A stretch of 64,000 nt of DNA from Escherichia coli (GTDB lineage: Bacteria > Pseudomonadota > Gammaproteobacteria > Enterobacterales > Enterobacteriaceae). Position 1 is the stretch's first letter; every line of letters starts with the position of its first letter. The stretch lies in NCBI RefSeq assembly GCF_050920415.1, contig NZ_CP169309.1; one strand, 5' to 3'. This document shows, in pieces, positions 16,308 through 42,690 of the stretch. The position numbers and the translations under genes were made by a program. Below the pieces are notes generated by a model that did no database searches, had not been told where the DNA came from, and saw nothing but the letters and a program-made list of their open reading frames with translations.

Positions 16308-16383
16308 TGGTGGCCCCTGCTGGACTTGAACCAGCGACCAAGCGATTATGAGTCGCCTGCTCTAACCACTGAGCTAAGGGGCC
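16308..16383 (-). tRNA. ileX: tRNA with CAU anticodon (tRNA-Ile2/lysidine type, ileX position)
   Basis: Reverse complement reads GGCCCCTTAGCTCAGTGGTTAGAGCAGGCGACTCATAATCGCTTGGTCGCTGGTTCAAGTCCAGCAGGGGCCACCA: cloverleaf with CAT anticodon and encoded CCA; sits between mug and yqjH as in K-12. Confidence 0.9.
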
Positions 16384-36971: not shown

Positions 36972-38405
36972 ATGAAAGTAACGCTGCCAGAGTTTGAACG
37001 TGCAGGAGTGATGGTGGTTGGTGATGTGATGCTGGATCGTTACTGGTACGGTCCCACCAGCCGTATCTCGCCGGAAGCGCCGGTGCCCGTGGTTAAAGTG
37101 AATACCATCGAAGAACGTCCGGGCGGCGCGGCTAACGTGGCGATGAATATCGCTTCTCTCGGTGCTAATGCACGCCTGGTCGGGTTGACGGGCATTGACG
37201 ATGCGGCGCGCGCGCTGAGTAAATCTCTGGCCGACGTCAACGTCAAATGCGACTTCGTTTCTGTACCGACGCATCCGACCATCACCAAATTACGGGTACT
37301 TTCCCGCAACCAACAGCTGATCCGTCTGGATTTTGAAGAAGGTTTCGAAGGGGTTGATCCGCAGCCGCTGCACGAGCGGATTAATCAGGCGCTGAGTTCG
37401 ATTGGCGCGCTGGTGCTCTCTGACTACGCGAAAGGTGCGCTGGCAAGCGTGCAGCAGATGATCCAACTGGCGCGTAAAGCGGGCGTTCCGGTGCTGATTG
37501 ATCCAAAAGGCACCGATTTTGAGCGCTACCGCGGCGCTACGCTGTTAACGCCGAATCTCTCGGAATTTGAAGCTGTTGTCGGTAAATGTAAGACCGAAGA
37601 AGAGATTGTTGAGCGCGGAATGAAACTGATTGCCGATTACGAATTCTCGGCTCTGTTGGTGACCCGTTCCGAACAAGGGATGTCGCTGCTGCAACCGGGT
37701 AAAGAGCCGCTGCATATGCCAACCCAGGCGCAGGAAGTGTATGACGTCACCGGTGCGGGCGATACGGTGATTGGTGTGCTGGCAGCAACGCTGGCGGCGG
37801 GTAATTCGCTGGAAGAAGCCTGCTTCTTTGCCAACGCGGCGGCCGGTGTGGTGGTTGGCAAACTGGGAACATCCACGGTTTCGCCGATCGAGCTGGAAAA
37901 TGCAGTACGTGGACGTGCAGATACCGGCTTTGGTGTGATGACCGAAGAGGAACTGAAGCTTGCTGTAGCGGCGGCGCGTAAACGCGGTGAAAAAGTGGTG
38001 ATGACCAATGGCGTCTTCGACATCCTGCACGCCGGGCACGTCTCCTATCTGGCAAATGCCCGCAAACTGGGTGACCGCCTGATTGTCGCTGTGAACAGCG
38101 ATGCCTCCACCAAACGGCTGAAAGGGGATTCCCGCCCCGTTAACCCTCTCGAACAGCGTATGATTGTGCTGGGGGCACTGGAAGCGGTCGACTGGGTGGT
38201 GTCGTTTGAAGAAGACACGCCGCAGCGCTTGATCGCCGGGATCTTGCCAGACCTGCTGGTGAAAGGCGGCGACTATAAACCAGAAGAGATTGCCGGGAGT
38301 AAAGAAGTCTGGGCCAACGGTGGCGAAGTGCTGGTGCTCAACTTCGAAGACGGTTGCTCAACCACTAACATTATCAAGAAGATCCAGCAGGATAAAAAAG
38401 GCTAA
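36972..38405 (+). CDS. hldE: bifunctional D-beta-D-heptose 7-phosphate kinase / 1-phosphate adenylyltransferase HldE (RfaE)
   Basis: 477 aa [27 protein letters not shown]... Confidence 0.95.
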
Positions 38406-38489
38406 CCGGAAAGCGGTTCACAGTTCTCGCGTTGTGCCGGATAGTCCTATTGACGCTGTTGTTTTTTCAACCTAAAGTAAAGGAACAAG

Positions 38490-38630
38490 GGTAAGGGAGG
38501 ATTTCTCCCCCCTCTGAATGGCCGTTAATAAGCGTGGAAACTTATCAGTAACAGCACAATCAGTATGATGACGAACTTCATCATAACCCTTTCCTTATAC
38601 AAGGCCCCTTCTTCGGGAGGGGCTTTCCCG
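38490..38630 (+). ncRNA. Sib-type antisense sRNA (antitoxin) covering the ibs ORF; ends approximate
   Basis: Plus-strand terminator hairpin gcccct-tcttcggg-aggggc then T-rich tract at 38604-38632; fully antisense to the ibs ORF, as in known Sib/Ibs loci between hldE and yqiK. Confidence 0.6.
38525..38584 (-). CDS. Ibs-family type I toxin, 19 aa hydrophobic peptide (MMKFVIILIVLLLISFHAY)
   Basis: Reverse complement atgatgaagttcgtcatcatactgattgtgctgttactgataagtttccacgcttattaa read directly; matches the Ibs toxin pattern; which named ibs paralog is uncertain. Confidence 0.8.
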   Translation of the reverse strand: MMKFVIILIVLLLISFHAY

Positions 38631-38866
38631 TTTCAGCCCCTTGCTGATTCCCCGATTGTTGATGAGCGCCAGACCCCGCGCAATGCTTTCCCTGATGCAC
38701 TTTTCTCTTCCCCGAGTCGGCTCGCAAAACGCTGTAACAACCTGATCATTTGTACTTTTTAGCGGAACGCAGATATAAAAAATCCCCGGCTTTTTGGGCC
38801 AGGGATATGTGTTAATGAAACCTTCTTGACGCTGATTTTTTTTCAACCTAAAGTAAAGGAACAAGG

Positions 38867-39007
38867 GTAAGGGAGGATTTCTCCCCCCTCTGAATTGGTT
38901 GTTAGTAAGTCGGGAAACTTAACAGTAACAACACAATCAGTATGATGACGAACTTCATCATAACCCTTTCCTTATACAAGGCCCCTTCCTCGGGAGGGGC
39001 TTTCCCG
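38867..39007 (+). ncRNA. Sib-type antisense sRNA (second copy); ends approximate
   Basis: Same architecture as copy 1, terminator hairpin at ~38981-39003. Confidence 0.6.
38902..38961 (-). CDS. Ibs-family type I toxin, 19 aa hydrophobic peptide (MMKFVIILIVLLLLSFPTY)
   Basis: Reverse complement atgatgaagttcgtcatcatactgattgtgttgttactgttaagtttcccgacttactaa read directly. Confidence 0.8.
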   Translation of the reverse strand: MMKFVIILIVLLLLSFPTY

Positions 39008-39199
39008 TTTCAGCCCCTTGCTGACTCCCCGATTGTTGATGAGCGCCAGACCCCGCGCAATGCTTTCTCTTATGCAGTTTTCTCTTCCCCGAGTCGGCTC
39101 GCAAAACGCTGTAACAACCTGATCATTTGTACTTTTTAGCGGAACACAGATATAAAAAATCCCCGACTTTTTGGGCCAGGGATGTTCATGGTTGAAAAT

Positions 39200-40861
39200 T
39201 TATTCTATGTTTTCTGCTACGGGAGTTGTTGAGGTTAAGGGTGAAGTCAATGCCGCTAGCGAGCCGCCTGAAACACCAATTTCATTGAGCAAGGAGTCAA
39301 TCAGCGGTGCCTGTGTGCGGTAAGAAAGCGCGGCTGATAACGCTTGTTCCGCCAGATTTCCTCCACCAACGCTACCTGATATTGCATCCCCTGCGGTACC
39401 ACCACGGTTCAGACCATCGACCTGAATAATCTTAATACCGTCGATAGACTTCATTGGTTCCACAGATTTCTCAATTACCGCAGGGAGCGCCTGCAACAAT
39501 GCCAGCTTGAATTTAAGGCTGGTTTGCTCGTCAGAAAGTACGTTGATAGCATCGTTCAGCGCACGTTGCGCTTCTGCTTCCGCCAGGCCTTTTTTACGCG
39601 TAGCTTCGGCTAACTCAACGATCGCCGCCGCCTGCATCTCTGCGGCTTCTTTCTCTGCTTTCGCCCGCACGGTCAGTTCAACCGCTTTGGTTTCTGCATC
39701 CTGCGCGGCAGCGATTAGGGCAACTTGTTTAGCACGATCGGCTTCTGCGGTCTGGCGAGTGGTTTCTACGTTTTGCTGGGCGCTTACCGCTTCTGCAAGT
39801 GCAAGGTTGGCACGCGCTTCCGTTTGTGACTGCTGTTCCGATTTGGCGGCAATAGCGATCGATTTCGTCTGGTTGGCGATTTCGGTGACCTGCTGCTGTT
39901 CGATCTCTTTAATGCGAACTTCACGTTCAGCTTCAACTTTTCTGGAACGGACGGCCTGTTCGCGGTCGATTTCCGTTTCCTGAATCTGTCGTTCAGCCAG
40001 AATTCGCGTCTGCTCTGCTTCCCGACGACGCTCGGCCTCAAAAGCCGCAATTTTCGCATTCTGCTCAGCGGTACGGGTTTTAACCTGCTGCTCCTGCTCA
40101 AGCGTCATAAACGCTTCTTGCTGTTCAATCTCCAGCTTCCGCGAAAGCGCATCACGGTTTTTCTCACGCACCGCAACTTCTACATCCTGTTCAACTTCGT
40201 TACGTTCGCGACGACGGCGCTCCGTCTCCTGCGTCAGCTTGGTTAAACCTTCGGCGTCAAAGGCGTTGTTAGGATTGAAATGTTCTTTCGACGTCTGGTT
40301 AAAGTTGGTAAGTGAAACGCTTTCCAGTTCCAGGCCGTTTTTCGACAGATCTTCAGCAACGGTATTTTGTACGCCCTGCACGAAGTTCTCGCGGGTATCC
40401 TGTAACTCATGCATGGTCATTTGTGCAGCTGTTGCACGGAGGGCATCGACAAATTTATCTTCAACCAACATACGTAAGTCTTCAGGCGACAGGGTGCGTT
40501 GCCCCAGCGTCTGGGCGGCGGTGGCAATACCTTCCACTGACGGTTTTACCCGCACAAAGAAAGCGACAACGACATCGACGCGCATACGATCTTTCGTAAT
40601 CAGGCTATCAATGGTTGAGCGGCTGACTTCCAGCTTCAGAGTATTCATATTGATGGGGATTATTTCATGAAAGATCGGCATCACGATTGCGCCACCGCTC
40701 ATTACCACTTTTTGCCCACCTAAACCAGTACGAACAAAAGCTTGCTCTGCCGAAGCGCGACGATAGAGCCTGGCGAAAATAATTCCAATAATTAACAGAA
40801 TGCATACGGCAATAATTGCGGTAAACATCCAGGAGGGCACAGAATTAACAATATCATCCAT
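39200..40861 (-). CDS. yqiK: flotillin-like SPFH/band-7 inner membrane protein YqiK
   Basis: 553 aa; N-terminal TM, SPFH domain, long Ala/Glu/Gln-rich coiled-coil. Confidence 0.88.
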   Translation of the reverse strand: MDDIVNSVPSWMFTAIIAVCILLIIGIIFARLYRRASAEQAFVRTGLGGQKVVMSGGAIVMPIFHEIIPINMNTLKLEVSRSTIDSLITKDRMRVDVVVAFFVRVKPSVEGIATAAQTLGQRTLSPEDLRMLVEDKFVDALRATAAQMTMHELQDTRENFVQGVQNTVAEDLSKNGLELESVSLTNFNQTSKEHFNPNNAFDAEGLTKLTQETERRRRERNEVEQDVEVAVREKNRDALSRKLEIEQQEAFMTLEQEQQVKTRTAEQNAKIAAFEAERRREAEQTRILAERQIQETEIDREQAVRSRKVEAEREVRIKEIEQQQVTEIANQTKSIAIAAKSEQQSQTEARANLALAEAVSAQQNVETTRQTAEADRAKQVALIAAAQDAETKAVELTVRAKAEKEAAEMQAAAIVELAEATRKKGLAEAEAQRALNDAINVLSDEQTSLKFKLALLQALPAVIEKSVEPMKSIDGIKIIQVDGLNRGGTAGDAISGSVGGGNLAEQALSAALSYRTQAPLIDSLLNEIGVSGGSLAALTSPLTSTTPVAENIE

Positions 40862-42321: not shown

Positions 42322-42443
42322 TGTAGTTTCCCTGTACTGATAGGTGTTGAGTGCCATTGTAGTGCGATAAGGGTAAGTCATAAACCAGAATTATGTGAAG
42401 CTATGCGTTGCTGCCGCTAATCATTAGCGTTATAGTGAATCCG

Positions 42444-42690
42444 CTTATTCTCAGGGCGGGGCGAAATTCCCCACCGGCGGTAAATCAACTCAGTTGAAAG
42501 CCCGCGAGCGCTTTGGGTGCGAACTCAAAGGACAGCAGATCCGGTGTAATTCCGGGGCCGACGGTTAGAGTCCGGATGGGAGAGAGTAACGATTCTGTCG
42601 GGCATGGACCCGCTCACGTTATTTTGGCTATATGCCGCCACTCCTAAGACTGCCCTGATTCTGGTAACCATAATTTTAGTGAGGTTTTTT
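42444..42690 (+). ncRNA. FMN riboswitch (RFN element) in the ribB leader; aptamer ~42444-42595 plus expression platform
   Basis: Conserved RFN segments agggcggggcgaaattccccaccggcggtaaa, cccgcgagcgctttgggtg, aggacagcagatccggtgtaattccggggccgacggttagagtccggatgggagagagtaacg seen directly. Confidence 0.85.

Follow-up and report, generated by a model that had tools for sequence, protein, structure and literature searches.

Tandem sib/ibs type I toxin-antitoxin modules between hldE and yqiK in Escherichia coli, with a rare allele in the hldE-proximal position

What occupies the intergenic region between hldE and yqiK, at positions 38406-39199 of a 64,000-nucleotide stretch of an Escherichia coli genome (the window, by which that whole stretch is meant), is a question on which two descriptions of the same letters disagree. 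A mechanical list of open reading frames (ORFs) places frames of 65 and 89 amino acids there, whereas an earlier sequence-only reading dismissed those frames as artefacts and proposed tandem copies of sib/ibs, a type I toxin-antitoxin family. The analyses described below indicate that the region is almost certainly a pair of tandem modules whose orthologues in strain K-12 are sibE/ibsE and sibD/ibsD. The locus is already known, in that public records annotate both toxins and both peptide alleles have RefSeq accessions.

The region consists of two direct repeats, much as had been proposed for 38450-39190 (two near-identical units of about 377 base pairs). A repeat search paired 38450-38519 with 38826-38895 at 97% identity and a start-to-start distance of 376 nucleotides (nt), and 38519-38818 with 38896-39195 at 93% identity and 377 nt; full alignment of the two units gave 28 differences in 377 columns. 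Their boundaries were drawn by combining the direct repeat search with alignment to the K-12 sibE/ibsE and sibD/ibsD units:

38450-38825, no strand assigned, repeat unit 1, the hldE-proximal sib/ibs module
38826-39199, no strand assigned, repeat unit 2, the yqiK-proximal sib/ibs module

Membership of the family was established with the Rfam SIB_RNA model (RF00113), the check that the earlier reading had itself suggested. Two plus-strand matches, at 38450-38599 (149.4 bits, E = 3.7e-31) and 38826-38976 (143.7 bits, E = 9.2e-30), each span model positions 1-147 of 147 and score far above the curated gathering score of 56 bits. The ends of the corresponding RNAs were transferred from the curated coordinates of sibE and sibD in MG1655, which place the first nucleotide 40 nt past the ibs stop codon and the 3' end 44-45 nt past the ibs ATG; the promoters were found by a promoter scan and verified in the sequence, and the terminator hairpins were folded with RNAfold and likewise verified in the sequence. 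The resulting features are:

38450-38478, plus strand, sib1 sigma-70 promoter (TTGACG, 17-nt spacer, TAAAGT)
38485-38628, plus strand, Sib1 antisense antitoxin RNA, 144 nt, with A at +1
38601-38626, plus strand, Sib1 terminator hairpin, 11 base pairs, GC-rich, with a 4-nt loop and then a short interrupted T run
38826-38854, plus strand, sib2 promoter (TTGACG, 17-nt spacer, TAAAGT)
38861-39005, plus strand, Sib2 antisense antitoxin RNA, 145 nt, with A at +1
38978-39003, plus strand, Sib2 terminator hairpin, 11 base pairs, GC-rich

Promoters, secondary structure and terminator hairpins all match those of K-12. Both RNAs begin with ACAAGGGU. Over its 29 nt the sib2 promoter has the same sequence as the K-12 sibD promoter, of which a 35-base-pair minimal version is experimentally sufficient in K-12 and whose A at +1 allows capping with nicotinamide adenine dinucleotide (PMC12956327), and the Sib1 terminator hairpin recurs without change in K-12 SibE. 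The single-sequence folds of Sib1 and Sib2 obtained with RNAfold match those of SibD and SibE, and the consensus computed with RNAalifold from these two and the five K-12 Sib RNAs contains 44 pairs, with compensatory changes at 10; the closing P1 stem, the internal hairpins, the hairpin containing ATGATG and the terminator are shared by all. This conservation of promoter and terminator leads to the prediction, by analogy with K-12, that Sib1 and Sib2 are made as RNAs of approximately 144 nt from promoters of their own.

On the opposite strand of each unit lies a reading frame for a peptide of 19 residues, read exactly as in the earlier account and preceded, as also stated there, by a Shine-Dalgarno-like element. 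The mechanical list gives both frames as 25-residue versions with a TTG start; counted from the first ATG they are 19 residues long, and both starts read ATGATG. Positions and translations of the two frames were taken from that list and from an identical public record, the Shine-Dalgarno sites were verified in the sequence, and the promoters were placed by homology (with the hexamers of both read in the sequence), because a generic promoter scan of the window had passed over them:

38525-38584, minus strand, ibs1 ORF, 19 residues, MMKFVIILIVLLLISFHAY (RefSeq WP_100733770.1)
38592-38596, minus strand, ibs1 Shine-Dalgarno core AAGGA, 7 nt ahead of the ATG
38655-38683, minus strand, putative ibs1 promoter (-35 TTGCGC at 38683-38678, 17-nt spacer, -10 AACAAT at 38660-38655)
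38902-38961, minus strand, ibs2 ORF, 19 residues, MMKFVIILIVLLLLSFPTY (RefSeq WP_071821827.1)
38969-38973, minus strand, ibs2 Shine-Dalgarno core AAGGA, 7 nt ahead of the ATG
39032-39060, minus strand, putative ibs2 promoter (-35 TTGCGC, 17-nt spacer, -10 AACAAT)

Comparison with IbsA to IbsE shows that both peptides conform to the family pattern MM[KR]x[VL]II..LL..SFxxY (18-19 residues, hydrophobic). The alignments to SibD/SibE and IbsD/IbsE that had been suggested as a further check gave 89-95% identity for the Sib RNAs, with Ibs1 agreeing at 16 of 19 residues with IbsD (and at as many with IbsC) and Ibs2 at 17 of 19 with IbsE. The claim that the two peptides have diverged held for the contrast of HA against PT near the C-terminus, and was otherwise in need of correction: three residues differ (I14L, H17P, A18T) rather than four, and the N-terminus does not separate them, since F at position 4 is common to both.

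The hexamers of the putative ibs promoters are conserved in the K-12 units. From them, the ibs1 messenger RNA (mRNA) is predicted to start near 38646-38648 and to end near 38485, a length of approximately 160 nt, and an ibs2 mRNA of similar length is predicted to start near 39023; the predicted ibs1 start agrees with published measurements, in which the ibsC mRNA overhangs SibC by 18 nt at its 5' end and the ibsC and ibsD mRNAs are 159-163 nt long (PMC2943612). Sib1 (38485-38628) encloses both the ibs1 ORF and its Shine-Dalgarno site, and unit 2 has the same geometry. The earlier description of a fully overlapping opposite-strand transcript, ending in a GC hairpin and a T-tract, is accordingly borne out with respect to the complete coverage of the ibs ORF and the 11-base-pair hairpin, and overstated with respect to the T-tract, which is short and interrupted (TTT, CCCG, TTT downstream of the hairpin).

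The neighbourhood of the modules, which was taken from the ORF list and from the annotation of the identical record, also corresponds to that of the K-12 sibD/sibE locus:

36972-38405, plus strand, hldE
39200-40861, minus strand, yqiK

When the interval 38380-39220 was compared by megablast with 5426 complete E. coli genomes, the sole match at 100% identity was NZ_CP169399.1 (strain MFDS1022581). The PGAP annotation of that record lists hldE, two coding sequences named 'type I toxin-antitoxin system Ibs family toxin' (WP_100733770.1 and WP_071821827.1, at positions identical to those of the peptides described above) and yqiK; the Sib RNAs themselves carry no annotation there. The proposed Ibs/Sib architecture between these two genes is therefore one on which RF00113, the K-12 layout and the RefSeq annotation agree. 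That the modules had been 'missed by ORF calling' is correct for a naive, length-filtered ORF track and incorrect for PGAP, which annotates both toxins; that Ibs genes often escape ORF callers had already been noted in the literature (PMC2887945).

Several results weigh against this identification. The generic promoter and terminator scan of the window, which flagged the sib promoters and two minus-strand hairpins, flagged neither the ibs promoters nor the Sib terminators, so that the Sib 3' ends rest on homology to the curated SibD and SibE ends of MG1655. The NCBIfam hidden Markov models gave no match to the Ibs peptides at E values up to 1, when queried with an artificial N-terminal extension of six residues (19 residues being below the 20-residue minimum), a negative that says little for peptides so short. 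Finally, the product of ibsD in MG1655 is labelled only a 'putative toxic peptide'.

That label also bears on a different account of the same DNA, in which one or both modules are inert relics, the peptide being non-toxic or the ibs mRNA unexpressed, and the repeat is kept only as an abundant Sib RNA. Consistent with such an account, the expression of ibsA in cells deleted for ibsA/sibA left survival unaffected (PMC2943612), the number of copies varies between strains (some of which have a single unit), and the putative ibs promoter is weak. Against these points stand the integrity of both ORFs, Shine-Dalgarno sites, promoter pairs and terminators, and the character of the peptides themselves: 14-15 of 19 residues are hydrophobic, residues 5-19, the stretch reportedly required for IbsC to be toxic, are hydrophobic and typical of the family in both Ibs1 and Ibs2, and Ibs2 differs from IbsE, for which the MG1655 label reads 'toxic peptide IbsE', only by L4F and V9I. 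We regard inert relics as improbable.

The frames that gave rise to the original disagreement are less probable candidates still. They are drawn from the mechanical ORF list:

38565-38762, plus strand, 65-amino-acid ORF
38942-39139, plus strand, 65-amino-acid ORF
38595-38864, minus strand, 89-amino-acid ORF

Were any of these a real gene, on either strand, the repeats would be duplicated small-protein genes. The 65-codon frame is indeed open in both copies of the window and in most of the sampled strains; PGAP calls a 101-amino-acid extension of it a 'hypothetical protein' in strain E200086 (WP_077757011.1; L010 487-792, equivalent to window 38565 onward); and the ratio of nonsynonymous to synonymous substitution rates (dN/dS) of the part of the frame that lies outside the Sib overlap is 0.64, a value not clearly indicative of neutrality. 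Insertions and deletions, however, break the same frame in both K-12 copies (leaving 59 amino acids with a different tail in one and 27 amino acids in the other) and in strain 536, and these frameshifts are more informative than the dN/dS value. The mild constraint can be explained by the overlap of the region with the conserved ibs promoter. The ATG of the frame has no Shine-Dalgarno site, and its ATGATG owes its existence solely to a palindromic Sib hairpin, in which it mirrors the ATGATG of ibs; the frame, moreover, reads through the terminator hairpin of Sib RNAs that are about 140 nt long. An NCBIfam scan gave no match to the 65- or 89-amino-acid ORFs, as would be expected of non-coding sequence, and the open frames of the minus strand (at least 60 codons from stop to stop) vary in length and position among strains. 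The dismissal of these ORFs as artefacts was thus probably right, and they are very probably not genes. The 101-amino-acid call in E200086, which overlaps a Sib RNA, is probably an annotation artefact of the same kind, which means that the artefact reaches public annotation.

With the two sib/ibs modules retained as the explanation of the region, the duplication that produced them can also be examined. Two minus-strand hairpins were flagged by the terminator scan:

38782-38806, minus strand, terminator-like hairpin and T run within unit 1
39159-39183, minus strand, terminator hairpin directly 3' of the yqiK stop codon, part of unit 2

The first is a duplicate of the second, from which it follows that the ancestral duplication took in the yqiK terminator; the copy within unit 1 may end ibs2 transcripts.

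While sequence, family membership, gene neighbourhood, geometry and the conservation of promoters and fold are properties observed in this DNA itself, what the modules do would be expected to follow the K-12 work. In that strain the Sib RNAs are constitutive antitoxins of approximately 140 nt, each covering its ibs mRNA across the whole of the initiation region and the ORF, recognition is initiated by two domains independent of each other, and the Sib-ibs duplex is a substrate for RNase III (PMC2943612). By analogy, a strong sigma-70 promoter (TTGACG-17-TAAAGT) in each unit of the window would produce a structured plus-strand Sib RNA of about 144 nt, while a weak minus-strand promoter would produce an ibs mRNA, about 160 nt long and complementary to Sib over nearly all of its length, that encodes the hydrophobic 19-residue peptide. 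Sib would contact its cognate mRNA first through two single-stranded recognition domains, TRD1 pairing within the ORF, in its 3' half, and TRD2 where translation is initiated, after which pairing would spread, block translation and create the RNase III substrate. Any Ibs that was made would be expected to form an alpha-helix in the inner membrane, causing depolarisation and growth arrest. Transmembrane helices and depolarisation within minutes of induction are known for IbsC and other Ibs peptides of K-12 (PMC8309996), and a 2025 preprint reports the inhibition of FoF1 ATP synthase by Salmonella IbsA (10.1101/2025.05.26.656083). On the strength of these K-12 relatives, Ibs1 (with its H17) and Ibs2 would both be toxic on overexpression.

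The same model makes it possible to ask whether the two modules would distinguish one another. In SibC, TRD1 (+46 to +68) targets the ORF and TRD2 (+99 to +115) the initiation region, and either domain can repress alone (Han et al. 2010, PMC2943612). Alignment to SibC places the equivalent domains as follows:

38531-38553, plus strand, Sib1 TRD1-equivalent, aligned to SibC +46 to +68
38584-38602, plus strand, Sib1 TRD2-equivalent, aligned to SibC +99 to +115, identical in Sib2 and in K-12 SibE
38908-38930, plus strand, Sib2 TRD1-equivalent, identical to the TRD1 of K-12 SibE
38961-38979, plus strand, Sib2 TRD2-equivalent

Sib1 and Sib2 differ at only 10 positions, nine of which fall within +35 to +71 and one in the terminator loop; the TRD1-equivalents differ at 4 of 23 nt and the TRD2-equivalents not at all. 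The clustering is pronounced, with 42 nt around TRD1 holding nine of 19 whole-unit differences (hypergeometric P of about 7e-5). Because TRD1 differs, TRD2 is identical and either domain represses alone, discrimination between the copies is predicted to rest on TRD1, and some cross-repression between the two modules through TRD2 is plausible. TRD1, together with the Ibs C-terminus, is where the repeat diversifies, in keeping with a published proposal that Sib/Ibs pairs, once duplicated, evolve discrimination between cognate and non-cognate partners.

That part of the repeat also moves between the two positions of the array. When the position adjoining hldE is called slot 1, the position adjoining yqiK slot 2, and TRD1 with the Ibs C-terminus the core, the ten loci that were compared (the window and nine other strains) contain four core types, namely HAY, PTY, QAY and the K-12 IbsD type, arranged as follows (slot 1, then slot 2):

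This window: HAY, then PTY
R32_14_1F: PTY, then HAY
N96: PTY (the IbsE-like variant WP_001387082.1), then HAY
2013C-4282: QAY, then PTY
Z0117EC0005 and E200086: QAY, then HAY
RMDEC465 and 536: PTY only, in a single unit
O157:H7 F6667, and K-12 the same: PTY (IbsE), then AAY (IbsD type)
ST38: PTY (IbsE-like variant), then ATY (IbsD type)

The cores of the window, at 38518-38554 and 38895-38931, stand in reversed order relative to those of R32_14_1F. In N96, an IS66-family transposase gene follows unit 2 directly, at the place where yqiK lies in other strains. The locus of RMDEC465 and 536, with its single sib/ibs unit, fits unequal crossover.

How unusual the arrangement in the window is was assessed in the same 5426 genomes. 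The locus as such is nearly universal, with a match to the query in 5425 genomes and a single place covering at least 80% of it in 5403, while identity above 95% across 38380-39220 was found in only 12. Identity to K-12 is about 90% for the intergenic region, 96% for hldE and 93% for the part of yqiK that was compared. Substitutions are densely clustered at 38345-38445, in the 3'-terminal part of hldE and the spacer ahead of sib1, and this block is private to this genome when it is set against its four closest relatives at the locus. A 201-nt query for HAY in slot 1 proved to be confounded by lineage-specific substitutions in the flanks, and a 66-nt core query (window 38505-38570), combined with direct checks of the slots, was used instead. 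The exact core is present in 12 genomes. It lies in slot 2 in four other carriers that were inspected, and probably also in seven further carriers, as judged from their near-identical match statistics across the locus; among the 12 carriers (seven of them placed in this indirect manner) only the genome of the window has HAY in slot 1.

The diagnostic positions of unit 1 indicate how this came about. Its promoter spacer is of the slot-1 type (38459, 38461), and its core at 38518-38554 is the HAY core of slot 2; the exchanged tract was therefore at most about 150 nt long. On its sequence the locus is a recombination mosaic, and the simplest explanation suggested by the pattern is that the direct repeats underwent ectopic gene conversion with each other, perhaps following the import of foreign DNA. 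A broader proposal would treat the array between hldE and yqiK as a two-slot cassette site, at which ectopic gene conversion passes short specificity cores (Sib TRD1 with the Ibs C-terminus) from slot to slot and from strain to strain, the rare HAY core having moved to slot 1 here as a one-off event. The modules would then be partly orthogonal, so that either Sib could keep the toxin of the other module in check as well, the orthogonality being partial because TRD2 is identical in both copies. We offer this proposal tentatively, and consider it doubtful in its full form; the exchange between slots amounts to a minor curiosity of population genetics, with no new system involved. The importance of the locus is likewise small beyond quality control, where it illustrates that a type I toxin-antitoxin locus shown wrongly in a length-filtered ORF track can still be recognised correctly by a reader given nothing but the sequence.

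Other RNA elements were observed elsewhere in the window:

42443-42591, plus strand, FMN riboswitch (Rfam RF00050), 120.9 bits
647-728, plus strand, marginal match to naRNA4 (RF02564), 60.4 bits against a gathering score of 59.5
16308-16383, minus strand, tRNA-Met gene, anticodon CAT

Among known systems, the closest is the pair sibE/ibsE and sibD/ibsD of K-12 MG1655 (b4611/b4666 and b4447/b4664), which likewise lies between hldE and yqiK, with curated sibE and sibD non-coding RNAs and ibs coding sequences, sibE/ibsE adjoining hldE and sibD/ibsD adjoining yqiK. The two loci share their flanks and orientation, an intergenic length of 794 base pairs, a tandem layout of two units with a period of about 376 nt, and the same sib promoter, A at +1, fold, terminator and ibs Shine-Dalgarno site. 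Sib2 of the window is 95% identical to K-12 SibE and has its TRD1 and TRD2, whereas Sib1 is 91.0% identical to SibE and 90.3% to SibD. The loci, whose intergenic regions are only about 90% identical, differ in four further respects: both Ibs peptides of the window carry F4 where those of K-12 carry L4; the IbsE-like (PTY) allele is proximal to yqiK in the window and to hldE in K-12; the hldE-proximal slot of the window holds the rare HAY allele, with a TRD1 unlike that of every K-12 Sib; and TRD2, which differs between SibD and SibE, is identical between the copies of the window. The possibility that ibsD and ibsE have simply traded places with respect to K-12 was considered and ruled out, as the near-equal distance of Sib1 from SibD and SibE marks it as a separate allele.

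The experimentally dissected sibC/ibsC pair of K-12 belongs to the same family and has the same fold and full-overlap antisense geometry, and sits at another locus, between fau and serA. IbsC and Ibs1 of the window have the core VIILIVLLLISF-AY in common (16 of 19 residues), and the TRD1 of SibC differs from that of Sib1 at only 3 of 23 nt, while TRD2 differs; overall, Sib1 and Sib2 are 70-74% identical to SibA, SibB and SibC. More distant parallels are provided by ldr/rdl and zor/orz of E. coli, chromosomal type I loci in which the gene for a small hydrophobic toxin under repression by an antisense RNA is likewise duplicated in tandem within one intergenic region and often missed by ORF callers (PMC2887945). 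Their sequences are unrelated, and their antitoxins overlap part of the toxin mRNA, whereas Sib covers the whole initiation region and ORF (PMC2943612).

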